A stretch of 64,000 nucleotides of DNA from Sphingobacteriales bacterium JAD_PAG50586_3 (GTDB taxonomy: Bacteria; Bacteroidota; Bacteroidia; CAMBQF01): NCBI GenBank assembly GCA_023213195.1, contig CP096135.1:2040842-2104841 (forward strand), in the 5' to 3' direction. The position numbers and the translations under genes are program-made. Positions 3,920 to 53,501 of this stretch are shown here, one piece after another. The stretch's first letter is position 1. Every line of letters begins with the position of its first letter. The notes beneath the pieces were generated by a model that saw nothing but the letters and a program-made list of their open reading frames with translations, was not told where the DNA came from and ran no database searches.

Positions 3920-3924
3920 AGCAG

Positions 3925-4803: not shown

Positions 4804-4816
4804 TCAATTAATAAAC

Positions 4817-38026: not shown

Positions 38027-39220
38027 AATTAAGGGGCTTATAGGTTAGTTGGTCGTAAACTATTTTAAGCCATACCAAAATGCAGGGCAAAACCTTTAAC
38101 TGGTAGGGGATTATAATGTCGGTACGGATGGCGCGGGGGAATAAATCGGTAGGGGAGAGGCAGGTAAAAACAAATACCAGCACCAGTAAAACCAGGTTGA
38201 ATGTGCTTTGCTTTTGACTGAAATACCAAATAACAATACCCGCCACAGCAATAATAAACGTGGGCGACTCTGCCTTGTGGTTGAAGATAACAGTCCATAT
38301 TAGGGCAGATGCCAGCAACAGCAGTTTAAAGCCCGGTTGTTGCCATGCTTTAATGTTGAGGTAGGTCAAACAAAACAAGCCTACGCCCGCAATGGTAATA
38401 AGCATTTTGTTGGGTGTAGCCCCAAACCAAGCCTCTAAACCTCCGGCAACAGATAAACCTAACGATGCGGCATGGTCGGCTTGCAGCATGGTAAACCAGC
38501 TATTGTACTGCCATTGCAGCGTAGCCCAGGGCGTAACTAGCACAGGAATAATTGCAAGCAATACACTAAACCCGGCTATACTGCCAATAAATTTTACTTT
38601 TTAGGATAGAATAAGAATAGCGCCGCCGCCACCAACCCAAAGGGTTTTATAAATGTTGCCAATGCTATAAATAATGCGGCACGGGCCACTTTGCCGCTTT
38701 CAAAACAATTGTAGGCCCATATCATCAACCCTGCAATAAGCGCGTTGCTTTGGCTGTTTTGCATATTGGTCATTAATTCAACAACCACAAACAGCAGGGC
38801 AAAGGCCCGTTGTTTATCGGTAAACCGTTTAATAGATACAATAGCCGAGAATAATACAACCGAGTTTAGAATGTTCCACCAGATAAGGCCAAGCCAAACG
38901 GGCATCCACGCAAAAATGCCAAAAAACAAGGCAAATACCGGCGGGTATTTATACAGGTCGTAATACTGTGTGGGGTGATTAATATATAAATCAACACCGT
39001 TTACCAGGTTGTAAAACGATGCCCTGAAAATCATAAAGTTATTGTAGTGGGTTTGCGTATCGGCCTTGGTGCCTTTAGCAAGCTCAGCAACAGATGCCCC
39101 AATGGCCAGCAGCACAAACAGGCACAGCAGCACTTGTGGGTTGGTTATAAACCGTATTATACGCTCTTTTATTGCCATTCTATTGTGCCAACGGGGTAAA
39201 CGGTTAGGGTATCGGGGCAT
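37986..39220 (-). CDS. DUF2029/GT87-like polytopic membrane glycosyltransferase-family protein, split by one T/A-run frameshift (~38597)
   Basis: Two ORFs (38594-39220 and 37986-38561) that join as ...LFLFYPKKVKFIGSIAGFSVLLAIIPVLV. About 12 TM helices in total. Confidence 0.55.
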
Positions 39221-39669
39221 TCATTTAGCAACTGCCCAATGGTTTTATTTAATACGGGGTGAAGATAGTCTTTTGCAATTTCAGCCAAGGGCACAAGGGT
39301 AAACCTGCGGTTTGCCATAGCAGGGTGGGGCACGGTTAATTCAGGGGTGTTTACTATTTCATCGCCATAAATTAATATGTCAATGTCTATAATGCGGGGA
39401 CCGTTTTTAGGCACTAAACGGGTTCGGCCCAGTTGGCGCTCTATTTCTAAAATAGTAACAAGTAATTGGGCAGGTGGCAGGCTAGGTTCAATTTCTACAA
39501 CGGCATTCAAAAACAAATCTTGGTCTTTAAATCCCCACGGGGCGGTTTCGTATAGCGCCGATGTTTGAACAACTTTGCCCGCATCAGAGTTTATTTGCCT
39601 GATGGCTGTAATAATTACCTCTTGTTTGTTACCAATATTACTGCCTAACAGCAAAAACACCCTTTTCAT
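39169..39669 (-). CDS. folK: 2-amino-4-hydroxy-6-hydroxymethyldihydropteridine diphosphokinase (HPPK)
   Basis: LLGSNIG, ETAPWG, RIIDIDIL, PHP motifs. Confidence 0.85.
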   Translation of the reverse strand: MKRVFLLLGSNIGNKQEVIITAIRQINSDAGKVVQTSALYETAPWGFKDQDLFLNAVVEIEPSLPPAQLLVTILEIERQLGRTRLVPKNGPRIIDIDILIYGDEIVNTPELTVPHPAMANRRFTLVPLAEIAKDYLHPVLNKTIGQLLNECPDTLTVYPVGTIEWQ

Positions 39670-39729
39670 TTGGCAAAGATACTTTGCCTGTTCAATAATC
39701 ATATATTTGCAAAACATCAACTATTCAAA

Positions 39730-41493
39730 ATGAAACAATTCTTTAAATTTTTCTTTGCCTCGTGCCTTAGCTTTTTAGTAAGCGTTGGGTTATTAGTACT
39801 AATAGGTTTTTGGGTTATCAGCGCCGCAACCTCGTCTGCCGCAAAAGATGGCGGCGTAGATGTTGAAGACAATTCTGTACTGTATGTTACCCTTAACAAC
39901 GCTATTGTAGACCATACAACATCAGATGGTTTTCCCAGCATGTTGGGTGGCAGCTCTACCATGGGTCTTGATGATATTTTAACATCAATAAAATATGCTA
40001 AAACCGACGATAAAATTAAAGGCATATTTTTAGAAGTAACCAACCTTACTACCGGTATGGCCACTGCTGAAGAGCTGCGCAACTCGCTTATAGATTTTAA
40101 AACATCGGGTAAGTTTATTTATGCCTACTCTGATTATTATAGCTAGGGTGCCTACTACCTTTCATCGGTTGCCGATAAAGTGTATGTAAACCCACAAGGT
40201 GGTGTTGAGTTTAAAGGCCTTTCTGCCGAATTGATATTTATTAAAGGAACACTGGAAAAATTAGGCGTAGAGCCGCAAATTATTCGCCATGGCAAGTTTA
40301 AAAGCGCTATAGAGCCTTTAATTAACGATAAAATGAGCGAGAGTAACCGCTTGCAAACCCGCACCTACATTAGCGCTTTGTGGAATAAAATGCTGGATGG
40401 CATTAGCAAATCGCGCAAAATTACCACTGCCGAATTACAAACTATTGCTGATGGTTTATTGCTTGTAGATTCTAAAGCCGCTGTAGACCGCAAGTTTGTT
40501 GATGGCGTTAAGTACAGGGATGAGGTGCTGGATATGCTGAAAGATAAAACCGGTGCCGAATCTGTTAAAAAAATTGAGTTTGTTACCCTTAACAACTACG
40601 TAAAAGTTGGCAAGCCTGATGTGGGCGACCGTAACAAAAAAGTAGCCGTTATATTTGCTGAAGGTAGCATTGTTGATGGTAAAGGCGATGATAGCAGCAT
40701 TGGTTCGGCAACCCTGTCTCGCCACCTGCGCAATGCCCGTTTAGATGATAAAATTAAAGCCGTAGTGCTTCGTGTTAACTCGCCGGGTGGTAGCGCCTTA
40801 GCATCTGATGTTATTTGGAGGGAAGTATTATTGTTGAAAAAAGCCAAGCCTGTTATTGTTTCTATGGGCGATGTAGCCGCATCGGGCGGTTACTACATTG
40901 CTTGTGCTGCCGATACTATTGTGGCGCAACCTAATACCATTACCGGTTCTATTGGTGTGTTTGGTGTATTGTGGAATGCAAAAGGCCTTACAGATAAACT
41001 GGGTGTTAGCGTTGATACGGTTAAAACCGGTGCCATGGCCGACCTTGGTACTGCCAGCCGCGCTATGACAGAGCCTGAACGCAAATACATTCAAAATCAA
41101 ATAGAAATGATTTACGATGTGTTTATTGGCAAAGTGGCCGATGGACGCCGAATGACTAAAGCCGATGTAGATAGCATAGGTCAGGGCCGTGTGTGGAGTG
41201 GAATTGATGCCAAACGCATTGGTTTGGTAGATGTGCTTGGCGGTATGGATGTGGCTATAGCAATTGCAGCTAAAAAAGCCAAGCTTGACGATTACAGCGT
41301 TGTGTTTTTACCACGCACCGAAAAAGGCATTACCAAACTACTTAAAGACCTTAGCGGCGAAGATGACGATAAGGTGAGCAAGATTATGATGCATGAGTTA
41401 GGCCCTGATTACAGGTACTACCAATACCTGCGCAATGCCCGCCAAATAAAAGGCATACAGGCCCGCATGCCTTATCAAATTGAGATTAACTAA
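39730..41493 (+). CDS. sppA: Signal peptide peptidase SppA (67K type, tandem S49 domains), interrupted by an in-frame TAG at 40144-40146
   Basis: ...YAYSDYYS*GAYYLSSVADKVYVNPQGG... and a second domain with the GSIGV serine motif. The TAG lies in CTAGG and CAG (Gln, the consensus residue) restores CCAGG. Confidence 0.85.
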
Positions 41494-41513
41494 CCGTTTA
41501 ATTCATATTACAG

Positions 41514-41550
41514 AAAAATCCCGGCTGTTACAGTCGGGATTTTTGTTTTT
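41514..41550 (+). terminator. Rho-independent terminator after sppA
   Basis: aaaaatcccggctgttacagtcgggatttttgttttt. Confidence 0.75.
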
Positions 41551-41667
41551 AACAGAATACATATCTTGTTGAAAACAGGTTTTTGTTTTATTGGTTGTTT
41601 CTACTATCTTGCGGATGCTTAATCAGAAAAACGCCATTTTGGCATGGTTTTTGCAAACACAAGCGCA

Positions 41668-42194
41668 ATGAAAAAATTTGTACTCGTTTTATTATTCGTT
41701 TTTAGTGTAGGCTTTGCTAATCAAGGCTTTGCAGCTAATACCGGTACTGTTTCAGTTCCAACAGATTCTGTAGTAAATACCAAAACCAGCTTTTTTCTTG
41801 GTCTACCTTAGACCACATGGTATGCTATGCTAAAGATTTTATTGGAATTCCTTACCGCTACGGCTCTATGAGTTTAAAGGCTTTTGATTGTTCTGGTTTT
41901 ACCTCTTATGTATTTCAGCAATTTGGTATGTTGTTGCCACGTTCTGCCCGCGACCAAGCCGGTTTGGGTAAAAAAGTACACGAGTGCGATGCCCGCAAAG
42001 GCGACCTTGTTTTCTTTAAAGGCCGCAGTACATCATCATCATTTGTTGGCCACGTAGGTATTGTTATTTCAGAGATTGGCGATAAACTAACCTTTATTCA
42101 CGCATCGGTACACAAAGGCATTACTATAGATACTATAGACCTGCGCTACTACAAAGACCGCTTTTTGTACGTTAAGCGCGTATTAGATTTGTAA
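41668..42194 (+). CDS. NlpC/P60 (C40) family peptidase with signal peptide; one T-run frameshift (~41788)
   Basis: The signal peptide MKKFVLVLLFVF is in one frame and the P60 core FDCSGF...GDLVFF...GHVGIVI in the next. They rejoin if T6 is read as T7. Confidence 0.75.
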
Positions 42195-42225
42195 GATTAT
42201 TCAACCGATATATTATTAAAAAGCC

Positions 42226-42256
42226 CTTTGAGAAATCGAAGGGCTTTTTGTTTTGA
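42226..42256. terminator. Bidirectional terminator between convergent genes
   Basis: aaaagccctttgagaaatcgaagggctttttgtttt. Confidence 0.7.
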
Positions 42257-42269
42257 TATACTTAGAGTG

Positions 42270-43364
42270 TTACTTCTCCTCTATATTATATACCGATATC
42301 CATCCGCCCTGATAGCTGGTAGCCCACAGGCGTTTCCCATCGGGCGATACGCTTACACCCATGGGCTTAAATATGGTTGTTGAGCCTACCTCCTTAAAGG
42401 TTTTCATATCTATTATAGAAATCTTGTTCGACTCGTGTACCGCAGCAAACATATACCGTTCATCGGGCGTTAGGCAAATGGTACGCACTTGCGAGCCCAA
42501 GCTAACCGACCGTGTTACCTTCTTCTTGTATATATTATACTCCAAGGCCTTACCCCCTGTGTTTTCTGATACATACAACAGGCTGTCGTTTTTAGATAGC
42601 ACTATGTGGCGTGGGTTGGGAGTAATGTGCAGTTCCTTTATCTGTTTAAGGCTATCAAGGTCTATAACACTAATAGTGCCGCCGCGCATGTTGCACACGT
42701 AGGCCGTTTTAGAGTTTGATGTTACCGCAATGCCCCGCGGAATATACCCGCCGTTGCCTACTGTAATGTCTTTAATCTTCTTTAAGCTATCGGTAGTAAC
42801 AACGCTAATGTTGCTGCTATGCCAGTTGGCAATAAGGGCTAGCTTACCATCGGGTGTTACTTTAATAACCTTGGGGGTATGGCCTACAGAGACTTTAGGC
42901 ATTTCTACCCGGTTGCTATCGCCACCTTTAGGGTTTTTTACAGTAGCCTTTTGGCCCTGTGTTTTAAAGCAAACTACGCTACTATCGTTACCGGGGTTAT
43001 ATGGGTTGTACCGCACTACGCACGCCCCGTTGTGGAATGATACCCAAAGGTACTTACCCCGTTCAGAAAAATCGCACTCTACGGGCTTCTCTGCAAAAGA
43101 GGCAATAGGCTTTTTCAAATCATAGTCCCACCCCGTGGCAGCGGTTTGGTCAAACTCTACCTTTTGGCGTATGTAAAAGCTATCAGCATCAATAATCCAG
43201 ATATTGCAGCCCTCCAGGTTCATAACCGCGGCATAGTTACTATCAGGCGATAACTCTACCGACTTAGGTGCCTGTGCACCTTCAATCTTCTTAACCAGTT
43301 TTAGGGAAACGGATTGGGCGGATAAAAAAAATGGCAGTAGTAATATTATTAGGAATATACGCAT
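42270..43364 (-). CDS. YncE/YVTN-type beta-propeller repeat protein (secreted)
   Basis: Signal peptide MRIFLIILLLPFFLSAQ. Repeated ~40 aa blades with S..G..L.V...D...I..ID motifs. Confidence 0.6.
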   Translation of the reverse strand: MRIFLIILLLPFFLSAQSVSLKLVKKIEGAQAPKSVELSPDSNYAAVMNLEGCNIWIIDADSFYIRQKVEFDQTAATGWDYDLKKPIASFAEKPVECDFSERGKYLWVSFHNGACVVRYNPYNPGNDSSVVCFKTQGQKATVKNPKGGDSNRVEMPKVSVGHTPKVIKVTPDGKLALIANWHSSNISVVTTDSLKKIKDITVGNGGYIPRGIAVTSNSKTAYVCNMRGGTISVIDLDSLKQIKELHITPNPRHIVLSKNDSLLYVSENTGGKALEYNIYKKKVTRSVSLGSQVRTICLTPDERYMFAAVHESNKISIIDMKTFKEVGSTTIFKPMGVSVSPDGKRLWATSYQGGWISVYNIEEK

Positions 43365-43410
43365 ATTCGATTTTTTACAAATTTGTAACATTTATTGTAA
43401 TTTTGACTAA

Positions 43411-44238
43411 ATGGAACCTATTATTCGCCAAGCACTTTTAGATTTAGTTGCAAGCCCTGTTGATGAATTGTTTAATAATCAAGTATTCCAAAAAGATAAT
43501 GGAGCTTTTTATCGTAATACAGTTTTAAGTTAAGGTAGAACTGATTTTACAGAACCTTTTGTTACTGATAATGCTACAGTAATAACAGCTGAGCAAAAGG
43601 TTTTATTGTACTGTTATTATTACATGCAAATGCATTTTGAAAGTAGTAGCGAACTGTTTAGTAAATATAATAAAGTTGTAGAAAAGCCATTAATATTTGT
43701 TGACTTTGGATGTGGTCCTTTAACAGGAGGTATAGCATTACAAAATCATTTTTCCGATCCTTCGTTTCATCTACATTATGTTGGGATTGATATTTCTAAC
43801 GAAATGATTTCTAAAGCAAAAGAATTTCAAAATTACCAAGAATTATTCAATCCTGTAAATCAACATTTTGAATGGCTCAATGATTATATTCAATTGCCAG
43901 AAATATTATTACCCTTAATGCAACATTTAAAAGAATATTCATTAATATTCAATTTTTCTTATTTTTTTGCAAGTCATAGTGTTGATCCTCAAATAGTATT
44001 TGCTACTACACAACAAATATTGCAAAGTTTGGGAGATAATACATTTTGGGTTTTATATCAAAATCCCACAGCTTGGAGCCTACATGAAAAATGGACAGTT
44101 TATAGAAACTTATTACTTCAAAATTTGTTTGTTAACAAGGCGTTGATTTCTAATCCATTTCCATACGGATATCAAGATATTTTTGCAGAAAAACCATTAA
44201 ATTTGTATACTACTTGCGAAATATTACGTAGAAACTAG
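43411..44238 (+). CDS. Class I SAM-dependent methyltransferase (low-GC island); in-frame TAA at 43531-43533, so either a pseudogene or the true start is TTG 43606
   Basis: Motif I FVDFGCGPLTGG and post-I YVGIDISNEMISKA. About 30% GC. An N-terminal 40-codon in-frame segment precedes the TAA. Confidence 0.55.
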
Positions 44239-44243
44239 TTGTA

Positions 44244-44847
44244 ATGAATTTATTTAGTCAAATATTGGAAAGTCCCGAAACTGAAATTGCAAAAATTTCA
44301 GGATTGCAATACGTTGAAAATTATTTGACTAGGCAAGAGCATGACGAGATTTTGAATGCAATAGACGCTGCTCAATGGATTAATGATATAAAGCGTAGGG
44401 TTCAGCATTATGGCTTTAAATATGATTATAAAGCGAGAAGAATAGATTATTCGATGAAAATTGGGGACTTACCTGAATGGGCTCAAAAAGTTGCAGTTAG
44501 ATTATATAGAGATGGTTATTTTGACGTTATTCCTGATCAAGTAATTGTTAATGAATATATGCCTAGGTCAAGGTATAACACCTCATATTGATTGTGAACC
44601 TTGTTTTGAGGATACTTTAATCTCTATATCTTTGGGTTCTTATTGTGTAATGGACTTTGGTAAAAAGTTAAGTTCAGAAAAAGTGCCTGTACTATTAGCT
44701 CCAAGAAGCATTGTCATCTTAAAAGGTGAAAGTCGTTATACATGGACTCATGGAATAGCCCCTCGCAAAACTGATGTTTATCATGATATGAAGATTGAGC
44801 GTAGAAGGCGTATTTCACTTACTTTCCGCAAAACAATCATTAAGTAA
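44244..44847 (+). CDS. alkB: AlkB-like Fe(II)/2-oxoglutarate-dependent dioxygenase (nucleic-acid demethylase), with a +1 frameshift at cctAgg 44562-44567
   Basis: VIVNEYMP(G)QGITPHID.E...SLGS.CVM.F......PRSIVILKGESRYTWTHGI......RISLTFR. The ORFs 44244-44591 and 44545-44847 rejoin if cctagg was CCTGG. Confidence 0.75.
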
Positions 44848-44855
44848 CTATCTTA

Positions 44856-45038
44856 CTATAACGACTGGTTACTGTTTGCTGAAATAATGTTTTTCAATAC
44901 TCTCTTAGCTTCTTCTGTGTTATAACCCAGATTGTTTTTAGATTCTGCTAGAGCATTATTAAGGCGTTCAACAAATATTTGCTTTTCAGTATCTGGTATA
45001 GGGTTTATAATATCAGGAACTTTATGTTTCTTAGCCAT
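44856..45038 (-). CDS. Small hypothetical protein (60 aa) whose last 8 codons duplicate the M23 peptidase C-terminus
   Basis: It ends ...ISANSNQSL. The M23 gene ends ...ISANSNQSFD. The DNA is aacgactggttact at 44863-44876 and 45062-45075. Confidence 0.4.
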   Translation of the reverse strand: MAKKHKVPDIINPIPDTEKQIFVERLNNALAESKNNLGYNTEEAKRVLKNIISANSNQSL

Positions 45039-45055
45039 ATAATTTATTTATACGC

Positions 45056-46031
45056 TTAATCAAACGACTGGTTACTATTGGCCGAGATCTTCAACATAGC
45101 CTCATACTCGTCGGGGGTAAGGTCGTTAAAGTAGTAGTTAATGGGGTTTTGGTGCTCCCCGTTCTTCATTACCTCATAATGTAAGTGGGGCCCGGTAGAT
45201 TTACCCGTGTTGCCTACATAGCCAATAACCTCGCCACGTTTAACCTTTTGGCCGGGGCGTACTTTGGTACGGCTCAAGTGGCCGTAAAGCGTCATATATC
45301 CATAGCCGTGGTCTACCCTTATGTGGTTGCCGTAGCCCGATGCCTGCGCATCGGCACGTTGTACTACACCATCGCCTGTTGCATACACTTCTGTACCAAT
45401 AGGGGCGGCAAAGTCCATACCGGCGTGGAACTTGGGCATTTTATAAATAGGGTCGGTACGCCAGCCAAAGCCCGAAGCCATTTGCTTTAAATCTTTGGTA
45501 GATACAGGTTGAATGGCAGGTATAGCGCCCAACATATTAGCCTTATTCTGCACCAGCTTTAAAATCTCGTCGTACGATTTTGACTGTACTACAATTTGCT
45601 TAGAAAGAAAATCGAGCTTTTGCGTAGCACGCACCATCAGTTCAGAGTTATCGTAGCCCTGCAACTGGGCGTAACGGTCGGTACCGCCGTAGCCTGCCCT
45701 GCGCACTCCGGTAGGTATAGGCTCGGCCTCAAAAATAACCCGGTAAATATTGTCGTCGCGCTTTTGTAAATCGTCCAACACCATAAAAGACTGGTCTATG
45801 CGCTTGTTTAGCAGGTCGTATTGTAGTTTAAGCTGGTCAAGCTCGCGTGCAAGTTGCTTTTCTTTAGGCGACTCAAAAGTGTTGTAGGCAATAATCATGG
45901 TTATGGCAGCAAAAACCAGCCCCGTTGCTAAGGTACCAAAGCCCTTGTTTTATAATATCAGCCGGACGCAAACGTACTTTTTCGTACGATAGCGACTTAG
46001 TATTAAAATAATATCTCTTTTTTGTAGACAT
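45056..46031 (-). CDS. M23 family metallopeptidase with N-terminal TM anchor; G-run frameshift near 45930
   Basis: HAGMDFAAP, HIRVDHG and PHLHYEV zinc motifs. The N-terminus MSTKKRYYF...GLGTLATGLVFAAITMIIA rejoins via a GGG/GG run. Confidence 0.8.
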
Positions 46032-46172
46032 ATTGCCGTTAGTTCAATGTTTACAAGGGTTTTAAGCCTTGTTGTATTGTCTTAGCGTTAATTTTAGGCA
46101 CATCTCTGCACCGTTATAACCACAAATTTAGCTAATTAGCTTATTTTTGCCAAGTTTACAATAAAAACCATA

Positions 46173-47039
46173 ATGAAAGGAATTATTTTGGCAGGCGGTT
46201 CGGGTACACGTTTATACCCTATAACCATGGCTATAAGCAAGCAGTTAATGCCTATTTATGATAAGCCAATGATTTATTATCCGCTATCGGTTTTAATGTC
46301 GGCGGGCATAAACGAGATATTAATAATATCAACCCCCAAGATTTGCCGGGTTTTAAACGTTTGCTTGGCGATGGTAACAGTTTGGGCTGTAGCTTTAGCT
46401 ATGCAGAACAGCATGTGCCTAACGGACTGGCCCAGGCTTTTGTTATTGGCAAAGAGTTTATTGGTAACGATAAGGTAGCCCTTATTTTGGGCGATAATAT
46501 ATTTTATGGTACCGGGCTAGACCAGTTGCTGGTAGAAAATAACGACCCAACCGGCGGTATTGTGTTTGCCTACCACGTTTCAGACCCCGAGCGCTATGGT
46601 GTGGTGGAGTTTGATAGCGATAAAAAAGCCATTTCTATTGAAGAAAAGCCGGAGAAACCTAAATCGAACTATGCGGTACCGGGCTTGTATTTTTATGATA
46701 ACAGCGTGGTAGAAGTTGCCGAAAACCTGCAACCCAGCCCACGCGGTGAGTATGAAATTACCGATGTAAACAAGTATTACCTTAAAAACAATCTGCTAAA
46801 AGTAGGGGTTTTAGACAGGGGTACTGCCTTAGTTAGATACCGGCACGTTTGCATCGTTAATGCAGGCATCGCAATTTGTGCAGGTTATAGAAGAGCGCCA
46901 GGGCCTAAAAATTGGCTGTATAGAAGAGGTTGCTTACAAGTCTGGTTTTATTAACGCAGCAGCGTTAGAAAAACTTGCGCAACCCCTGTTAAAGAGTGGT
47001 TATGGTAACTACCTTTTGAGTGTTCTAAATACAATCTAG
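46173..47039 (+). CDS. rfbA: Glucose-1-phosphate thymidylyltransferase RfbA, interrupted at the C5 run 46337-46341 and at ccttag 46826-46834
   Basis: [11 protein letters not shown], ...GDNIFYG..., and GTA(W)LDTGT restored when ccttagtt is read as cctggtt. The C-terminus ...[23 protein letters not shown] is in the third frame. Confidence 0.85.
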
Positions 47040-47051
47040 TAAAAGCAGAAA

Positions 47052-48002
47052 ATGATACGTACAGATTTAACTAATATTTTGGTTACCGGTGGGGCGGGCT
47101 TTGTTGGTAGCGCCATTGCAGAAAAACTTGCATCAAACCCACAAAACTTTGTGGTGGTGGTAGATAACCTGCTTACGGGCAGCATGAATAAGGTGCCAAA
47201 ATCAGAACACAACAACGTAAAATTCATTAAATGTGATGTAAACAACTTTGCCGATATATCAGGCGTGTTTTTTGCTTACCGCTTTGAATATGTGTGGCAT
47301 TATGCCGCATTAGTGGGTGTTAAACGTACGCTGGAAAATCCTGTACTGGTATTAAAAGATATTGAAGGGATAAACAATATCCTTAGCCTGTCTAAAAACA
47401 CAGGGGTTAAAAGGGTGTTCTTCTCATCATCTAGCGAGGTGTATGGCGAACCGGTAGAGTTTCCTCAAAACGAAGAAACTACCCCGCTAAACTCGCGCCT
47501 GCCTTATGCTATTGTTAAAAACGTGGGCGAGGCTTACCTGCGCTCTTTTAAAAGGGAATATGGTTTAGACTACACTATTTTCCGTTTCTTCAATACCTAT
47601 GGCCCTAAGCAAAGTAAAGATTTTGTAATTTCTAAATTCATATCGCGCGCTATGGCTAATAAAGACATTACCATTTATGGCGATGGTAGCCAAACACGTA
47701 CCTTCTGCTATATTGAAGATAATGTGGATGCATGTTTAGCCGCTTTTTATGATAATAAGTACATTAACGATGTGGTAAACGTAGGCGGTGCCGATGAATT
47801 ACCTATTGTTGACCTTGCTAAACTTATTATTAAGGTTACCAACTCAAAGTCTAACATTGTACACCACGAGGCGTTGGAAGAGGGCGATATGACGCGCCGC
47901 CAGCCCGATACCGAGAAAATGAAAAAGCTGCTTAAGCGCGACCCCATTACACTGGAAGAAGGCATAAAACGTATTATTGAAAACCCTAAGTACATTCTGT
48001 AA
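47052..48002 (+). CDS. NAD-dependent epimerase/dehydratase family protein (nucleotide-sugar 4-epimerase/decarboxylase-like)
   Basis: TGGAGFVGS Rossmann motif, the YxxxK triad region, 316 aa. Confidence 0.8.
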   Translation: MIRTDLTNILVTGGAGFVGSAIAEKLASNPQNFVVVVDNLLTGSMNKVPKSEHNNVKFIKCDVNNFADISGVFFAYRFEYVWHYAALVGVKRTLENPVLVLKDIEGINNILSLSKNTGVKRVFFSSSSEVYGEPVEFPQNEETTPLNSRLPYAIVKNVGEAYLRSFKREYGLDYTIFRFFNTYGPKQSKDFVISKFISRAMANKDITIYGDGSQTRTFCYIEDNVDACLAAFYDNKYINDVVNVGGADELPIVDLAKLIIKVTNSKSNIVHHEALEEGDMTRRQPDTEKMKKLLKRDPITLEEGIKRIIENPKYIL

Positions 48003-48322
48003 TGCTGTATAACAAGCATATTTTTATATGCACCAACCAGCGTACAGAAGGTACACGCCCCAGTTGTGGGCACGATAGGGGCCTTGAATTGGTAGGCGCT
48101 TTTAAAAAAGCAATAAAAGACCGTGGGCTAAATACTGAAATACGCGCCCAAAAGGCCGGTTGCTTAGATGTGTGTGAGTGGGGCCCAAGCCTGGTGGTTT
48201 ACCCCGAAGGTGTTTTTTATAAGCATGTTACGTTGGCTGATGTGGAGGAGATAGTAGAAGAACACATTGTAAATAACCGCCCTGTTGTAAGATTAGTTAA
48301 CACTTTTGAAAAATCAGAATAG
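48002..48322 (+). CDS. (2Fe-2S) ferredoxin-like protein (thioredoxin-like [2Fe-2S] fold)
   Basis: CxxxxxxxxxxxCGH...C...C cysteine pattern (CTNQ..., PSCGHD, GCLDVCEWGP). Confidence 0.6.
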   Translation: MLYNKHIFICTNQRTEGTRPSCGHDRGLELVGAFKKAIKDRGLNTEIRAQKAGCLDVCEWGPSLVVYPEGVFYKHVTLADVEEIVEEHIVNNRPVVRLVNTFEKSE

Positions 48323-48382
48323 TAAAAAGAGTTATATTTGGAATTATATTTGATATATTTGAAAAACGAAAATTTTTACGCT

Positions 48383-48745
48383 ATGAAAAAGCTGGTTTAC
48401 ATATTCGCATTCTTCGCAATGTTTTTAGTGGTTAACACTGCTAAAGCACAATCTAACTTACCTGCAACCGTAGGTAAAGTAATTTTGGTAAAGGTAGACC
48501 CATCTACAATGGCCGAAGCCCGTGGCAAAATTAACGCTGTGCTTACAGATGGTAAACTAAACGGTTACCTTAAAGCAGAACAATCGTACATTGTTACAAT
48601 ACCTGACAATGCATCACAAATTAATACTGCTAAAACGCAGCTTTTAACAGCTTACCCAACAGCACAGTTAAGCGTAATTACCGTTGCCGATGCTAACTTA
48701 CTGATAGCCGCCCAGCGCAACGCTAACAACCCGGGCCACGAATAA
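48383..48745 (+). CDS. Hypothetical secreted protein
   Basis: Signal peptide MKKLVYIFAFFAMFLVVNTAKAQ. Confidence 0.45.
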   Translation: MKKLVYIFAFFAMFLVVNTAKAQSNLPATVGKVILVKVDPSTMAEARGKINAVLTDGKLNGYLKAEQSYIVTIPDNASQINTAKTQLLTAYPTAQLSVITVADANLLIAAQRNANNPGHE

Positions 48746-48767
48746 CGAAATATCCTGTTGATATAAA

Positions 48768-48801
48768 TTAAATCCCACCTATGGTGGGATTTTCTGTTTT
48801 T
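48768..48801 (+). terminator. Rho-independent terminator
   Basis: aaatcccacctatggtgggattttctgttttt. Confidence 0.7.
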
Positions 48802-48806
48802 ATACC

Positions 48807-49322
48807 ATGGCACAAAACATAGAATTAAAGGCCAACGTTGCAAATAGGGCAGAACTGGAACAAAAGGTTATCGTCTTGGTGGGCAATGCTACAGCCCAAT
48901 TGGTGCAGCGCGATGTATACTATGGCATACGCAAAGGCAGGTTAAAGTACCGCACAATAAATAATAGGCAACACGAGCTTATATACTATAACCGCCCCAA
49001 CACGGTTGAAGCTAAAAAATCAACTTTTTATAAATTCAACCTTTGGTTTCCAAAGCTAACCCACGGTATACTTAAAACCCTGTATGGTGAAACAGGTATT
49101 GTGGAGAAAGAGCGAACACTCTATATGCTGGATAATATTCGCATCCATTTAGATGATGTTAAGGGCTTGGGCCACTGCATGGAGTTTGAATATTTGGTAG
49201 ATGCCCAACATACCGAGGACATGGGTAAGCAACGCCTGCTTCAGTTAAAAGAGCAGTTAGCCTTGCCTGACTACAGCATCTTAACCCATTCGTATGTTGA
49301 TATAGCCGCTCAACGCTTATAG
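48807..49322 (+). CDS. CYTH-domain protein (class IV adenylate cyclase/CyaB-like triphosphate tunnel metalloenzyme)
   Basis: N-terminal IELK/EIE-type motif (NIELKANV), 171 aa, conserved acidic and basic tunnel residues. Confidence 0.65.
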   Translation: MAQNIELKANVANRAELEQKVIVLVGNATAQLVQRDVYYGIRKGRLKYRTINNRQHELIYYNRPNTVEAKKSTFYKFNLWFPKLTHGILKTLYGETGIVEKERTLYMLDNIRIHLDDVKGLGHCMEFEYLVDAQHTEDMGKQRLLQLKEQLALPDYSILTHSYVDIAAQRL

Positions 49323-49381
49323 GTTAATAAGTTGTAGCGTAAGGTTGCTGCATTTGCCTGTATTCTTCTTTTCTTAGCTAC

Positions 49382-50823
49382 ATGGCAGAACAAAAAGATG
49401 TAAAACGTACCCTTGGCTTTTGGGTAGCGCTTTCTATTGTTATAGGGTCGGTAATAGGCTCGGGTATATTTAAAAAACCGGCAGTAATGGCAAGCCAGCT
49501 AGGCTCTGCCGAGTGGCTAATTGCTGTATGGGTAGTAGCGGGTATTGTTACCTTGTTTGGCGCCCTTACCACAGCGGAAATTGCAGGCATGATACCCGCT
49601 ACCGGCGGGCAATTTATGTTTTTAAAAAGGTATATGGCAATTTTGCAGGCTTTATCTATGGCTGGGCATTGTTCTCGGTTATCCAATCAGGCTCTATAGC
49701 ATCCATCACCTACATATTTGCTGAATATACAGGGTACTTTGTACACCTGCCGCGCTTTTCGGCAGATGTTGAACAATCGGTAATACTGCACCTGCCGGGC
49801 ATAGGCAAAATATTTCCACTAGAAAATTTTGGTGTAAAGCTTTTGACTATTGCCACAATATGGTTGCTAACGGCTATAAACTACCGTGGGGCAAAATTTG
49901 GCGGCGGCATACAGGTAATATTTACAGCCCTAAAGCTATTTGCCATGGTATTTATAGTAGGTATGGTATTTGGCTGGGGCAGTAACGCCCAAGTGCCGGA
50001 TATGCCTGTAATACGCACTGTAGGTACTGTAACCCTGGTAAGCTTTATGGCGGCTATGAGTGGTGCCTTTTGGGGCTACGATGGCTGGAACAGCCTTACC
50101 TACATAGCGGGCGAGATTAAGAACCCGCAGCGCAATATTGTAAGGGCCTTGTTTTTTGGGTTGCTTACCGTTATTGCCGTGTATGTAACCATCAACTTTG
50201 CTTATTTGTACGTGTTTGACATTCAAGAAATGGCACAGTCTAAGCTGGTAGCATCAGATGTTGCGGTGGCTGTAGCGGGTTTAATAGGCGGTTCTATTGT
50301 GGCTGCCGCTATTATGATGTCAACCTTTGGCGCATCTAACGGGTCGGTAATGAGCAGCGCCCGTATATATTTTGCCATGGCCCGCGAGGGGTTATTCTTT
50401 AAAAACATTGGCAAGCTGCACCCTAAATACGAAACACCCCACAACTCGTTGCTGCTGCAAGCCACCTGGGCAAGCTTATTAGTTTTAAGCGGCACGTTTG
50501 ATATATTAACCGATATGCTGGTATTTGTAGCCTGGATATTTTATGCATTCTCAGCAGGTAGTGTTATTCTGTTGCGCATACGCGAGCCCGAAACACCCCG
50601 CCCCTATAAAGTATGGGGCTACCCGTTTATCCCGGTAATATTCATATTAGTATCGAGCACCTTTTTAGGTGTAACCCTATACAATGATATTAGTATGTAT
50701 ATGCGCGGCGAAACCCAGATAATAAACTCGGTATTTGGTTTGGTAATAGTAGCTACAGGCATACCATTCTATTTCTTGTTTAAGAAGAGTGGGGGAGAGA
50801 ATGACAAGAAGCTAGCAGAGTAA
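49382..50823 (+). CDS. APC-family amino acid permease, one frameshift in T/A runs near 49600-49640
   Basis: 12 TM helices. ...GSGIF..P...GGQ(F/Y)... then KKVYGNFAGFIYGWALF... in the adjacent frame. Confidence 0.8.
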
Positions 50824-50834
50824 AAGAATAAGCC

Positions 50835-51814
50835 ATGCGTAATCTTTTATTTCTTCTACTAAGTGCCACATTTTATGGATGTGCTTTGCCTGAGGGGTGG
50901 GAGAAAATTGATGCGGAAGGCTTACCCGAAAATACTATGTTTTCAAATGTTGTATTTGCTGATGATTCTGTAGGTTATGCCGCAACCGTTATTCCTAAAA
51001 TGTCGGTACACAAAACTACAAATGGCGGTAAAAATTGGACAAAGATACCATTAAATGGGCAAGATGCTTCTGTAAGGCAGATGTATGCCTTTAAAGGTAG
51101 TTTAGTGGTATTAGTGCAAACCTTTAGGGAGCTTTCTGATTATATTTTGAGGTATGATAACGGAAGCTGGGATACTATTTACCAAAGTAAAGACGGCTTT
51201 GATATACATAATATGTATTTTGAAGAACCGGCCAAAGGCTTTGCTGTACTTGGTAAATCAAGTAGTAGTCAAAAGCCGGTTTTAATCAGCCTTAAAGGAA
51301 AAGCAATTGATACGTTAAATGAAATTCAATACGAATACCGTAACAGTTATTTTACAAAGGATACGGTTTATTCATTTCAACAACATACGCCTTCGAATTC
51401 ATACATAGCAACATCTTTAGTAACAGGAAACCAATACCTGCATAAGTTTGAAAAAAGACTATTGTAGATTATATAACTACCGGAAACCATGCTAATGAGC
51501 TGATTTATATCACGAACAATAATCATCAGTATTCCATTATAAGAAATAATAAGCCAATTACAATTAAGGGCTATACAGACTATAGTATAGATGGCTTTTA
51601 TACCAATAAGAATTTTATGATAGCAGTGGGTTACAGGCCAAAAGATGCCAATATAGTAGGAGTGTACCATGCCATATTTGTTTCTGTAGATGCTGGGAAG
51701 ACTTGGAAGATGGAAGAATCGCCGGAACCACTTAAGCCAGATGTTTGTTACATGTTTGATGATAACCGTTTTCTTATTTTTGGTTTGATGAATATAATTT
51801 ATTTACGGAAATAA
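50835..51814 (+). CDS. BNR/Ycf48-like (sialidase-fold) lipoprotein, split by an A6-run frameshift at ~51451
   Basis: Lipobox LLSATFYGC. BNR-like TTNGGKNWTK and SVDAGKTWKM motifs. Low GC. Confidence 0.5.
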
Positions 51815-52509
51815 TGCTTCAAATTAAACTACCATCGGCACCGGGAAAAGATACATCGGGTAAAACATTTTATTTTGATGATGCTTTGGAAACAGGCAAA
51901 CGCTACTTTGTTACAGGCATAGGTACCGATGTGGGTAAAACGGTTGCATCGGCTATATTGGTTGAGTCGCTGGAAGCCGATTATTGGAAACCCATCCAAT
52001 CGGGTGCTACTGCAGATAGCGACAGGCTTACTGTACAATCGTTAATATCAAATACAAAATCGGTTTTTCACGCCGAGGTTTATAGTTTAAGAGAACCCCT
52101 ATCGCCGCACGCCGCCGCCGAGTTGGATAATATTGAAATAAAGCTGGAGAATATTCCCCTGCCCTATACCCACAACACCCTTATTATTGAGGGTGCCGGC
52201 GGGCTTATGGTACCCTTAAACTACAATGGCTTGATGGTTATTGATTTGATAAACCATTGCAAGGCCGAGGCCATAGTGGTATCGCGCAACTACCTGGGTA
52301 GCATCAACCATACACTATTATCAATAGAAGCATTAAAAAGCCGCAACATACCTATTGCGGGCATCATATTTAACGGGGCAGAAAATAAGGCTACAGAGCG
52401 TGTTATACTGGAAGAAACAGGAGTGCGTATGTTGGGCAGGATTAATGAAGAGCCTGTTGTAACTAAAGAAGTAGTATTGGGGTATAAGACAGTGTTCCAA
52501 ACCATCTGA
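51814..52509 (+). CDS. bioD: ATP-dependent dethiobiotin synthetase
   Basis: P-loop FVTGIGTDVGKTV, ...DYWKPIQSG..., EGAGG. Confidence 0.8.
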   Translation: MLQIKLPSAPGKDTSGKTFYFDDALETGKRYFVTGIGTDVGKTVASAILVESLEADYWKPIQSGATADSDRLTVQSLISNTKSVFHAEVYSLREPLSPHAAAELDNIEIKLENIPLPYTHNTLIIEGAGGLMVPLNYNGLMVIDLINHCKAEAIVVSRNYLGSINHTLLSIEALKSRNIPIAGIIFNGAENKATERVILEETGVRMLGRINEEPVVTKEVVLGYKTVFQTI

Positions 52510-52514
52510 ACAGT

Positions 52515-52946
52515 ATGAAAAAAACACTTGCAATGGGTGCCATTGTGGCTCTTGTTTTTATTGCCTGCAATGCAATAGAAAAACGCACTAACGACCCTAA
52601 AGACATTGCCGAGGCAACTAAGGTTGCTGATGAATTTATCAATAATGTAAAGGCTAAGAATTACGATAAAGCCATGGAGTTGACCACCATAAGCGAGGAT
52701 AACCCCGAACACCAAAAGCACATAAATATTTTTAAAGATTTGAATAATAAGCTGGGAGAAATTACCGGTTTTAAGCAAGATACCGCCGCCGCCATTGTAG
52801 CGCAGGAAGGAAACCATATAGAAGGGGTAATAGACCTGCAATACACGGTTAATTACCAACGGGGGCAAACTAAAGAGAGCTATACATTACAATATGATGA
52901 TGATGGTAAGATTATTGTAAGAAGCTATGCTATAACAACTCAATAA
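52515..52946 (+). CDS. Hypothetical lipoprotein (DUF4878-like)
   Basis: Signal peptide plus Cys lipobox (ALVFIACN). Confidence 0.45.
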   Translation: MKKTLAMGAIVALVFIACNAIEKRTNDPKDIAEATKVADEFINNVKAKNYDKAMELTTISEDNPEHQKHINIFKDLNNKLGEITGFKQDTAAAIVAQEGNHIEGVIDLQYTVNYQRGQTKESYTLQYDDDGKIIVRSYAITTQ

Positions 52947-52970
52947 AGAGCCTTGTTATAAGCAGTGTAA

Positions 52971-53501
52971 TTGAATATGAAAGGAGCAAAAAGGATAGTG
53001 CTGTTATTTACTGCCGTGCTTTTGAGTTTGTGTTTACAAGCCCAAAAAACGCCCGAGGAATTGGCCGATTATTTATTTAAAGCCATGAAGGCCGAAAATG
53101 TAAAGGCGGTAGGTACCTATTTATGTACGCCCGAAGAGGCCTTGTTATTTTCTAAAAAGCTGGGCTACTCCTATACCAAAGACCAGGGCGACGATTATAA
53201 AACGGAGCAGCTTAAGCTGGATACCGCTTTTATAGATCAGGTAAACTACGTTTTAAAAGACGGCAAAAACCAAAAAGGCATTGTGTGGAACAAAGCCGAA
53301 TTGGTAAAAATAAAGTCGGGGGTAGAGACTTATATACTAAGCAGTTTAGATGAAAGCAAGACCGCCGACATGGGTCCTGTTTCTGTAATTTTTAAGAGCG
53401 GTACAAATCAATTTATCCTCACCTTTGCAAACGCTTTTGATGCTACCGGCAGGTGGCGTATTAATGGTGAGAGTATTAAGTTGAAGAGATATACAGAATG
53501 A
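52971..53501 (+). CDS. Hypothetical secreted protein
   Basis: Signal peptide MNMKGAKRIVLLFTAVLLSLCLQAQ. Confidence 0.45.
   Translation: MNMKGAKRIVLLFTAVLLSLCLQAQKTPEELADYLFKAMKAENVKAVGTYLCTPEEALLFSKKLGYSYTKDQGDDYKTEQLKLDTAFIDQVNYVLKDGKNQKGIVWNKAELVKIKSGVETYILSSLDESKTADMGPVSVIFKSGTNQFILTFANAFDATGRWRINGESIKLKRYTE

Follow-up and report, generated by a model that had tools for sequence, protein, structure and literature searches.

A horizontally acquired gene pair for a predicted class I methyltransferase and an ALKBH8-like oxygenase, a candidate writer/eraser module

In eukaryotes, ALKBH8 joins an RRM, an AlkB-type oxygenase, a zinc finger and a Trm9-like class I methyltransferase (MTase) in one fusion protein. 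Its two enzymes are known to act successively on a single nucleoside, in the synthesis and hydroxylation of mcm5U in tRNA. The group of bacterial ALKBH8-like AlkB proteins known as 2A was delineated in 2009, and as late as 2014 its natural substrate was described as unknown. Most of the published members come from Alphaproteobacteria, and an MTase neighbor is reported in neither study (van den Born 2009, PMC2790896; Zdzalik 2014, PMC4051686). A further candidate relative, C3a159, was presented as a 'methyl transferase' with a link to type III CRISPR-Cas; the entry for this family defines it from three CRISPR-adjacent occurrences only and does not mention AlkB (Shah 2018, PMC6546367). Our literature searches found no description of this MTase paired with an ALKBH8-like oxygenase. 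Such a pair was present in the window analyzed here, a stretch of 64,000 nucleotides from Sphingobacteriales bacterium JAD_PAG50586_3, to which all coordinates refer.

The pair lies on an AT-rich segment of about 1.68 kb (43380–45055), inserted in the interval between a β-propeller gene and an M23 peptidase gene. The GC content of this 1676-bp segment was 0.307, compared with a mean of 0.428 elsewhere (z = −4.7; 1180 other intervals of 1676 bp each, standard deviation 0.026, minimum 0.344), which was the lowest value of the whole 64 kb. The three ORFs of the segment had GC3 values of 0.17–0.25, while those of the flanking genes were 0.40–0.55. The segment was absent at the orthologous site in four close relatives, where a gap of only 9–46 bp separated the M23 and propeller genes, with neither MTase nor AlkB between them. 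The M23 proteins of these segment-free relatives were 97–98% identical to that of the window. Similarity to the relatives ended with the stop codon of M23 (45056) and picked up again at 43379/43320. The empty site in four relatives, together with the deviating GC and GC3, identified the segment as a horizontally acquired insertion. A sequence-only reading of the window had already proposed an acquired AT-rich island at about 43400–45050. Its suggested limits (43392–45055) were nearly exact, and at the M23 loci of the relatives the genes were missing rather than present at ordinary GC. No integrase or transposase was found among the segment ORFs of at least 40 aa. The search for a donor genome returned none, the best DNA matches being about 68% identical, and further scans matched no Rfam family, detected no terminator and showed sigma-70-like promoters to be no commoner than expected.

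The first gene of the segment (43411–44238, plus strand) has 275 codons including one TAA. Its product has the Rossmann-like fold, in a predicted model, together with the glycine-rich motif I and the acidic residue closing strand 2 of a class I SAM-dependent MTase. The hallmarks DFGCGP (motif I) and YxGID were conserved, and the protein kept 11 of the 11 invariant positions of its family, including DFGCGP and NFSY. The AlphaFold2 model was of high confidence (pLDDT 93.4), with the alternating β and α elements of the Rossmann MTase fold. A fold search with this model gave 186 PDB matches at E ≤ 0.001, and the best 50 of the 186 were almost all class I MTases. The top match was a mitoribosomal small-subunit assembly factor. 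We refrained from naming a substrate on this ground, as the TM score of 0.56 was too moderate and the other matches were generic class I MTases. Family assignment by sequence pointed to the uncharacterized PADLOC family C3a159 (PDLC01079), matched at E = 8.4e-23 by residues 20–249 over model positions 22–236 of 265. No Pfam MTase family scored above its cut-off (best Methyltransf_12, 23.3 bits against the 30 required), every NCBIfam MTase match was far under its cut-off, and PHROGs likewise gave no assignable family. A Trm9-type match was not found, with Methyltransf_11 at E = 0.015 (16.3 bits, where 21.2 are required) and no Trm9 in the PDB profile search. The best match in that search was an uninformative one to trans-aconitate MTase, confined to motif I (E = 0.005). 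The possibility that the gene encodes a housekeeping small-molecule MTase is not borne out by these uniformly subthreshold scores.

The second gene (44244–44847, plus strand) begins 5 bp past the MTase stop and encodes 200 aa after removal of one base. The frameshift-corrected protein matched PF13532 well above the curated cut-off of 31.2 bits (86.3 bits, E = 4e-24). The iron triad H114, D116 and H169 and the arginines R189...R195 (RxxxxxR) were all present and are invariant in the subfamily alignment, in which 53 of 53 invariant columns were kept in the window protein. The closest solved structure was human ALKBH8 (3thp; E = 2.5e-32, residues 19–179 aligned), while E. coli AlkB gave about 1e-10 with an alignment of the core only (residues 90–196). 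The window oxygenase is a single domain of 200 aa, lacking an RRM, a zinc finger and an MTase domain. By sequence it is classed as an ALKBH8-like oxygenase of the group 2A type, in a comparison with ALKBH8 and E. coli AlkB that placed its N-terminal and nucleotide-recognition-lid region nearer to ALKBH8 than to the EcAlkB/ALKBH2/3-like groups. The arrangement is as first described, with an MTase carrying an in-frame TAA near its 5' end and an AlkB gene 5 bp downstream. The AlkB family was also named correctly; the classical repair-type demethylase that had been implied gives way to the ALKBH8-like group 2A type.

The third ORF (44856–45038) had been reported as a 60-aa ORF following the pair. 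It exists, but it is encoded on the minus strand and converges with AlkB, and by sequence comparison it is an orphan outside the conserved module. A search of 1.84 billion representative proteins returned only itself and one repeat protein, and the ORF was absent at every other MTase-AlkB locus. Its last 8–9 codons copy the C-terminus of the M23 protein; beyond these codons, derivation from a diverged M23 C-terminal domain was rejected. The copied part belongs to a direct repeat of 34 nt, in which the native M23 3' end (45055–45088, in agreement with the M23 ends of the relatives) and its internal copy (44852–44885) share 79% identity and a 14-nt exact core, AACGACTGGTTACT. The four differences within the eight codons shared by the copies were all synonymous, and the M23 tail ISANSNQSFD was specific to the clade of the window. 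An att-site model for the whole island was discarded, as the repeat brackets only the small ORF (about 200 bp). The flanking M23 metallopeptidase (45056–46031, minus strand; PF01551, E = 5e-37) has 324 aa in relatives and is frameshifted near its 5' end here, its tblastn match falling in two frames. On the other side, the β-propeller (42270–43364, minus strand; lactonase/YncE-like by Pfam) probably starts at the ATG at 43364, as suggested by the alignment to relatives, which begins at the signal peptide. These two genes, rmlA and the SppA-like gene were syntenic with the relatives and are not type III CRISPR-Cas genes.

The combination of the two enzymes had been regarded as unusual, but neighborhood searches showed that it recurs widely. 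AlkB was directly downstream of the MTase on the same strand at 61 of 80 genome loci, a set covering five phyla (Poribacteria, Latescibacterota, Cyanobacteria, Bacteroidota and Planctomycetota). In the reverse test from AlkB, the MTase was directly upstream at 38 of 65 metagenome loci. The MTase and AlkB distances were correlated (Mantel r = 0.80, p = 0.001; 52 pairs). Among the genome-derived loci these were the sole ORF families common to different phyla, and ORF clustering over 84 loci revealed no third universal partner gene. Judged from these sequence data, the pair is a conserved module whose genes co-evolve and which is present in at least five phyla. In almost every lineage it was richer in AT than its flanks. 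In Poribacteria it sat within conserved chromosomal synteny. The module is mobile and minimal, and the window copy is a horizontally acquired one. Each gene also occurred without the other. Ten of 80 genome loci had the MTase without AlkB within 10 kb (an AlkB elsewhere in the genome is possible), and solo AlkB genes (20–24 of 65) were commoner than solo MTase genes (10 of 77). At four AlkB loci, the MTase position was taken by an unrelated BMT5-like RNA N3-uridine MTase (PF10354, E = 1e-33).

In a plain tally of its loci, the pair was often found beside defense genes. The plasmids of PCC 7002 carry two copies, WP_012308535/WP_012308536 on pAQ5 and WP_012308583/WP_012308582 on pAQ6, with type III-B CRISPR, reverse transcriptase, Abi and restriction genes nearby; the copy on pAQ6 lies just downstream of the cmr genes and is the sole CRISPR-adjacent case. 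In Chitinophaga the neighbors were ApeA (HEPN) and an integrase, and some further loci had type III restriction-modification, toxin-antitoxin clusters or HerA. A UvrD-like helicase and an ADP-ribosyltransferase/glycohydrolase (ART-ARG) fusion lay upstream at 10 loci, the copies being only 21–41% identical to one another. In Bergeyella porcorum, a protein of 1438 aa joins a helicase that matched MkoA (E = 9e-60) to the MTase as its C-terminal domain. Four loci had an upstream KTI12/polynucleotide-kinase-like P-loop protein (AAA_33) with a WYL/WCX domain. The window copy had no helicase, kinase or ART-ARG partner, and no cas genes were found in about 17 kb around it.

Taken together, these features led us to propose, tentatively and at a little under an even chance, that the pair is a host-side writer/eraser conflict module in which the MTase acts before the ALKBH8-like oxygenase. 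The proposal draws on sequence comparison and on analogy to DarT-DarG. The MTase would methylate a nucleic-acid base, most likely in RNA, and the oxygenase would oxidize the same methyl group. On an N-methyl base, the oxidized methyl would then be lost as formaldehyde. The MTase might serve as the harmful effector and the oxygenase as its antidote or reset. A more specific form of this proposal is that the MTase N-methylates RNA bases to disable translation and the oxygenase continuously reverses this with Fe(II), 2-oxoglutarate and O2, as an unrecognized toxin-antidote or abortive-infection system. We consider this form doubtful. That methylation is the coupled step was suggested by the BMT5-like rRNA MTase, which replaces the MTase at the same upstream position in four loci, and this displacement plausibly strengthens the writer-plus-eraser reading. 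A nucleic-acid substrate, probably RNA, is implied by the tRNA hydroxylase ALKBH8 as closest solved relative, the MkoA-like SF1 helicase fused to the MTase in Bergeyella, the upstream KTI12-like P-loop protein and the mitoribosomal factor as best fold match of the MTase. The CRISPR, Abi, ApeA, restriction-modification, toxin-antitoxin, HerA and ART-fusion neighbors, with the AT-richness relative to flanks, point to a role in conflict. The operon structure, the defense contexts and the excess of solo AlkB over solo MTase lend the writer/eraser logic indirect support. However, the product of human ALKBH8 is a stable hydroxylated nucleoside rather than a demethylated one. The loci with an MTase and no nearby AlkB are awkward for a strict toxin/antidote pair, and the Poribacteria synteny gives the module more of a housekeeping look. 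The lack of a helicase, kinase or ART-ARG partner at the window copy also speaks against the proposal. The tested bacterial group 2A proteins repaired etheno adducts weakly in vitro (PMC2790896, PMC4051686), and the A. tumefaciens group 2A knockout had no phenotype (PMC4051686).

The closeness to ALKBH8 might instead reflect a two-step hypermodification, in which a nucleoside of tRNA or rRNA is methylated or methyl-esterified by the MTase and then hydroxylated by the oxygenase, giving a stable final modification; such a product might shield host RNA against cleavage by anticodon nucleases or adjust translation. This seems unlikely, though several features agree with it. The oxygenase is far nearer ALKBH8 than the repair AlkBs, and ALKBH8 holds both activities in one polypeptide. 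The KTI12-like protein upstream at some loci, the conserved synteny in Poribacteria and the ApeA (HEPN) gene adjoining the pair in Chitinophaga also fit, and an RNA-modification role was favored for the bacterial ALKBH8-like proteins (PMC4051686). On the other hand, the MTase is not Trm9-like, and a patchy, AT-rich, plasmid- and island-borne spread is unusual for tRNA modification. The alternative partner belongs to the BMT5-like N3-uridine MTases, and by AlkB chemistry the oxidized N-methyl product of such an enzyme would proceed to demethylation and not to a stable alcohol. In the A. tumefaciens knockout, tRNA-Gly(UCC) was unchanged, which speaks against hydroxylation of its mcm5U34 by the bacterial homologues (PMC4051686). 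We found it distinctly improbable that the two enzymes share no methyl group and serve the repair of RNA or DNA in conflict islands, with the MTase marking or protecting nucleic acid, as Hen1 does, that AlkB has cleared of alkyl or etheno lesions. The AlkB family includes repair enzymes, with group 2A acting on etheno adducts in vitro (PMC2790896, PMC4051686); the pair adjoins nucleic-acid-damaging systems, and an AAA_33 polynucleotide-kinase-like protein lies upstream at four loci. But this kinase is confined to a minority of loci, there is neither a ligase nor a phosphatase partner, the swap of the MTase for another RNA base MTase singles out methylation as the coupled step, and the group 2A knockout was not sensitive to MMS or chloroacetaldehyde (PMC4051686). 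The earlier suggestion of a phage-related or anti-restriction cassette, whose genes would come from a phage and protect the DNA of phage or host from restriction by modifying it, is very improbable. The low GC and horizontal acquisition of the segment would suit it, as would the AlkB-like genes of a few jumbo phages (PMC7824862). However, no MTase homologue was found in 50,697 phage records, 2.9 million viral contigs contained one partial motif-I match, and a viral structure library returned generic folds only for the MTase. The loci are chromosomes, plasmids and host defense islands.

For this genome alone, a different explanation had to be weighed, namely that the cassette has lost its function and persists as a decaying remnant, its TAA and frameshift being real and the small ORF and repeat being insertion scars. 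The TAA (codon 41; 43531–43533, plus strand) aligns with the R/Q of an 'RGR..F' motif and breaks the conserved, well-folded N-terminal domain of the MTase. The AlkB reading frame is also interrupted in the assembly, which the sequence-only reading had missed. One surplus base at 44564–44565 (plus strand) causes a +1 frameshift directly ahead of the catalytic HxD iron-binding motif, and removal of base 44564 or 44565 recovers NEYMPGQGITPHID and a single ORF for the 200-aa protein. The island retains neither a mobility gene nor a partner gene, which would also suit decay. We nevertheless regard decay as rather unlikely. The conserved neighboring core genes contained 6 frameshifts and 2–3 in-frame stops in about 14 kb, or about one defect per 1.6 kb (in rmlA, M23, SppA-like S49, bioA-like, permease, GT87 and NlpC/P60), and since the error rate is the same, the two defects of the cassette are poor evidence of decay. 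The core-gene stops at 54464 and 40144 were comparable to the MTase TAA, and recoding of TAA was set aside for this reason. All invariant residues of both proteins were intact, and the source name of the genome appears to resemble a nanopore flow-cell identifier. On these comparisons, the TAA and the frameshift are probably assembly errors and the copy is probably intact. AlkB may still be truly inactivated, because its frameshift context, GCCTAGGTC, is not homopolymeric, unlike that of 5 of the 6 core-gene frameshifts.

These results have implications beyond the window. That an MTase is conserved upstream suggests its product as the substrate of the ALKBH8-like oxygenase, and the replacement by a BMT5-like N3-uridine MTase at some loci supports the same view. 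The substrate question can thereby be put to a direct test, also in PCC 7002, a tractable cyanobacterium. If true, the writer/eraser reading would extend the few reversible nucleic-acid-modification defense systems by one based on methylation, and the toxin-antidote form, if true, would give group 2A AlkB proteins a long-sought physiological role. For this genome, what look like pseudogenes are most likely errors of assembly.

Compared with the described systems, the pair resembles ALKBH8 in combining an AlkB-type oxygenase with a class I MTase, but it consists of two separate genes, the MTase preceding AlkB, has no RRM or zinc finger, uses a non-Trm9 MTase, and shows a mobile, patchy distribution instead of a housekeeping one. 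The window oxygenase agrees with the bacterial group 2A proteins in being stand-alone, about 200 aa long and often plasmid-borne, with an ALKBH8-like nucleotide-recognition lid, whereas its subfamily occurs in Bacteroidota, Cyanobacteria, Poribacteria and others. The window MTase matched the C3a159 HMM over nearly its full length, in a copy without cas genes. In B. porcorum, the MTase occupies the place of the nuclease effector in the MkoA-helicase protein of Mokosh; that fusion lacks the PLD nuclease, and at the window copy a helicase is missing altogether. Pnkp-Hen1 likewise teams a class I MTase with end- or lesion-processing enzymes, and a kinase-like P-loop protein occurs at some loci of the pair. 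However, the pair has no ligase or phosphatase, its MTase is unrelated to Hen1 in sequence, and Pnkp-Hen1 has no AlkB. The proposed logic of the pair would be that of DarT-DarG, an operon of a nucleic-acid-modifying writer and a reversing enzyme in mobile and defense contexts. The two share no sequence relationship, and the chemistry proposed for the pair would be methylation and oxidative demethylation in place of ADP-ribosylation and its hydrolysis.

The AT-rich segment between the genes for the M23 peptidase (45056-46031, minus strand) and the beta-propeller protein (42270-43364, minus strand) was exceptional within the window. The GC content at 43380-45055 was 0.307 (z = -4.7), whereas the remaining 1180 windows of 1676 bp had a mean of 0.428 (sd 0.026, minimum 0.344). 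Third-position GC was 0.17-0.25 in the ORFs of the segment, compared with 0.40-0.55 in the flanking genes. The sequence-only reading had proposed a low-GC island here, and both this composition and a comparison with relatives, set beforehand as the test, bore the proposal out. The window derives from the MAG 'Sphingobacteriales bacterium JAD_PAG50586_3'. Contigs from relatives whose M23 peptidase shares 97-98% identity (84-89% for the DNA) kept the gene order rmlA, M23, beta-propeller, NlpC/P60 and S49 peptidase. Four of them (L086, L087, L088 and L090) lacked the segment, with 9-46 bp between the M23 stop codon and the propeller gene. The relatives' homology to the window ended at 45056 and restarted at 43379/43320, so about 1.68 kb is extra in JAD_PAG50586_3. 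The relative L089, whose M23 protein is identical, carried a different 262-aa gene at the equivalent site (L089:1560-2348), whose product has a signal peptide but matches no Pfam family; the M23-propeller site is thus a variable spot. Next lowest in GC within the window was the stretch at 3301-4976 (0.344), which takes in the last part of the gene for a 490-aa membrane protein and the gene for a 292-aa leucine-rich-repeat protein.

Most of the gene layout read from the sequence stood: an MTase-like ORF (43411-44238, plus strand) with an in-frame TAA (43531-43533), an AlkB-like ORF on the same strand starting at 44244, 5 bp past the MTase stop, and a 60-aa ORF. What had been missed was a frameshift splitting the AlkB-like ORF, and the small ORF (44856-45038) lies on the minus strand. 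The AlkB frameshift (+1, at about 44564/44565) is immediately 5' of the HxD motif, and removing one base restored NEYMPGQGITPHID and a 200-aa protein. We surveyed errors by comparing the proteins of the relative L086 with positions 38040-54763 of the window. Within about 14 kb, conserved core genes contained six frameshifts (permease, rmlA twice, M23, NlpC/P60 and GT87; examples at 46331-46340, 46833-46834, 45906-45946, 41781-41796, 38597-38600 and 49621-49630), five of which were in homopolymer runs. Two clear in-frame stops were also found, in the bioA-like gene (54464) and the S49 peptidase gene (40144), with a third close to the HPPK end (39171). We take frameshifts in homopolymer runs as typical of nanopore assemblies, and the form of PAG50586 suggests the identifier of a nanopore flow cell. 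Pseudogene calls anywhere in the window are thus unsafe, given an assembly that appears rich in errors and probably rests on nanopore reads alone. One stop and one frameshift in a 1.7-kb segment equal the background rate of the neighboring core genes, and the family-invariant residues were all kept (11/11 in the MTase, 53/53 in AlkB). Both defects are probably assembly errors. The context of the frameshift, GCCTAGGTC, is not a homopolymer, so AlkB may have been genuinely inactivated. If real, the TAA would be damaging, because it substitutes a conserved R/Q of the MTase N-terminal domain, which folded at high confidence in the structure model. The window copy is an ordinary passenger, possibly damaged, and the interest rests with the module.

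The 60-aa ORF lacked relatives among 1.84 billion representative proteins, and other MTase-AlkB pairs had no such ORF beside them. It ends in 8-9 codons (ISANSNQSL) that duplicate the C-terminus of M23 (ISANSNQSFD), and this M23 tail is specific to the clade of the window organism. In the DNA, the M23 3' end forms an imperfect direct repeat, 34 nt long (44852-44885 and 45055-45088, 203 bp apart) and 79% identical, with a 14-nt exact core; the copies differ at four places within the eight shared codons, each time synonymously. The repeat brackets the 60-aa ORF only, not the whole insert. It resembles a scar left by recombination or at an attachment site, and tandem accretion could also be its origin. 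At the other end of the segment, TAATTTTG (43398-43405) fits TAnnTTTG, which we take to be the -7 promoter motif of Bacteroidota, and lies 5 nt before the start codon of the MTase; a -33 TTTG at the proper spacing was absent. If used, this promoter would give an almost leaderless MTase transcript.

The MTase is a class I methyltransferase, as judged from the conserved DFGCGP and YxGID motifs, the AlphaFold2 model (pLDDT 93.4) and fold matches to class I MTases. It missed every Pfam and NCBIfam cut-off, and a PDB profile search found no solved relative by sequence. Its match was the PADLOC model C3a159 (E = 8e-23), which originates from a 2018 survey of type III CRISPR-Cas neighbor genes, where the entry has three occurrences and the sole label 'methyl transferase' (PMC6546367). 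The family is distinguished by a conserved helical domain at the N-terminus (LLYCYYYMQMH) and by an invariant N..Y at the motif IV position (NFSY); the latter resembles the NPPY motif of amino-group MTases, which is only a lead. Three homologues (P0016, P0018 and P0020) bear an extremely acidic, low-complexity N-terminal extension of about 150 aa, and a fourth (P0040) bears a cysteine-rich, zinc-ribbon-like one of about 140 aa. The oxygenase matched PF13532 (E = 4e-24) and contains both the iron triad and the arginines that bind 2-oxoglutarate. Its closest solved relative was the human ALKBH8 AlkB domain (E = 2.5e-32), with the match extending over the N-terminal lid region, whereas E. coli AlkB aligned to the core only (about 1e-10). 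This placed the oxygenase among the bacterial 'group 2A' ALKBH8-like proteins. Little has been published on that group: its in vitro repair activity is described as weak or variable, a knockout in A. tumefaciens showed no phenotype, and the physiological substrate is explicitly termed unknown (PMC2790896, PMC4051686).

The neighborhood search upheld the MTase-AlkB association noticed from the sequence. Scanning one genome per species, we found the MTase in 134 species, mostly Poribacteria, but also Latescibacterota, Nostocales cyanobacteria, Bacteroidota and Planctomycetota. An ALKBH8-like gene lay directly downstream on the same strand in 61 of the 80 loci retrieved, and 1-5 kb away or upstream in six; the contig end was too near in three, and ten had none within 10 kb. 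Starting conversely from the oxygenase in metagenomes, the MTase was directly upstream in 38 of 65 loci with room upstream and nearby in another arrangement in three, while 24 had none, HMM search included. The closest oxygenase homologues (64-66% identical), from Chitinophaga ginsengisoli and metagenome contig L093, both follow an MTase-like gene at 20-23 bp; that of Chitinophaga is a confirmed family member (hhalign E = 3e-49), and that of L093 had a sub-threshold Pfam MTase match only. ORF clustering of 84 genome-derived loci found the two genes to be the only ones common across phyla. Their pairwise distances correlated (Mantel r = 0.80, p = 0.001, 52 pairs), with the MTase diverging faster (mean distance 0.61 vs 0.42). 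The pair was AT-richer than its surroundings almost everywhere, with median differences of -0.10 in cyanobacteria and Latescibacterota, -0.06 in Poribacteria and -0.035 in Bacteroidota, and -0.12 in the window. These results show that the MTase and the ALKBH8-like oxygenase form an inserted, conserved, co-evolving and compositionally foreign two-gene module. Some genomes hold more than one MTase copy. Seven loci, mostly of Poribacteria (L020, L030, L051, L053, L056, L073 and L080), have two ALKBH8-like paralogues beside the MTase, in most cases one on each side.

Taken one by one, the loci show that the module recurs in conflict contexts and is linked to nucleic-acid enzymes. Synechococcus (Picosynechococcus) PCC 7002, a tractable cyanobacterium, carries the pair twice, just downstream of type III-B CRISPR cmr genes on plasmid pAQ6 and amid reverse transcriptase, Abi and restriction genes on pAQ5. 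Ahead of both copies stands a gene for a 686-aa protein that combines a KTI12/polynucleotide-kinase-like P-loop domain with a WYL/WCX domain. The two trio blocks (L094:4867-8534 on pAQ6, L095:4860-8534 on pAQ5) share 83% DNA identity, and the trio occurs in two further loci, one being a metagenome contig (L138:925-4585). A contig from a MAG labelled Sphingobacterium thalpophilum (L018) encodes proteins 85-95% identical to those of pAQ6, genes outside the pair included, and is probably cyanobacterial and mis-binned. In ten loci (L022, L111, L112, L114, L124, L125, L127, L130, L135 and L151), a UvrD-like helicase and an ADP-ribosyltransferase/ADP-ribose glycohydrolase fusion (ART-ARG, PF22546/PF22545) precede the MTase by about 1-3 kb, in the order helicase, ART-ARG, MTase, oxygenase. 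The ART-ARG proteins share just 21-41% identity, which indicates a conserved neighborhood, not single-lineage synteny. The fusion had no PADLOC match, and with the helicase it could belong to a larger system not yet characterised. Further neighbors included ApeA with an integrase, type III restriction-modification, HerA, toxin-antitoxin clusters and a transposase. No member of the MTase family turned up in 50,697 phage records, and 2.9 million viral contigs were effectively free of it.

In four of the 24 metagenome loci lacking the MTase, an unrelated BMT5-like MTase lay directly upstream of the oxygenase on the same strand (L158:3172-3978, L162:3281-3945, L164:1560-2267 and L171:3124-3996), with matches to the rRNA uridine-N3 MTases of PF10354 (E = 1e-33 and 1e-30). 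The BMT5-like gene of L162 is itself split by a frameshift. The replacement of the usual MTase by another one at this position argues for methylation as the step to which the oxygenase is coupled and also points to an RNA base as the target. We propose that the MTase would place a methyl group on a nucleic-acid base, probably of RNA, and that the oxygenase would oxidize this group. AlkB chemistry removes N-linked methyl groups as formaldehyde. If the methyl were on nitrogen, as for BMT5-type enzymes, it would be released in this way, so the pair would be a writer and an eraser.

An operon for a writer that would be harmful and for its eraser, carried in defence islands, would follow the logic of DarT-DarG, and this is the reading that we tentatively favor. 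The recurring ART-ARG neighbor, itself a fusion of an ADP-ribosyl writer and eraser, fits this picture, but the ten MTase loci with no nearby oxygenase and the stable chromosomal synteny of the pair in Poribacteria speak against a toxin with its antidote. The main rival, a two-step modification of the ALKBH8 type that would leave a stable hydroxylated nucleoside, seems rather unlikely. A repair module is less likely still.

The components of the pair belong to known superfamilies; the oxygenase falls in a named bacterial group, and the MTase family was previously a label only. We found no description in the literature of the MTase/ALKBH8-like pair, of the variant with a BMT5-like MTase or of the defence contexts, although an earlier account may exist. 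The word methyltransferase is absent from the 2009 group 2A paper (PMC2790896), and the relevant parts of the 2014 paper report no MTase neighbor (PMC4051686). A 1438-aa protein of Bergeyella porcorum (L041:6413-10726) has the MTase as its C-terminal domain, behind a ~680-aa N-terminal region without assignment and an SF1 helicase, and the ALKBH8-like gene comes next; this helicase matches MkoA of the Mokosh defence system (E = 9e-60), so that a MkoA-like helicase is here fused to the MTase. DarT-DarG, in which a harmful writer and its eraser form an operon, supplies the logic that we tentatively propose for the MTase-oxygenase pair.
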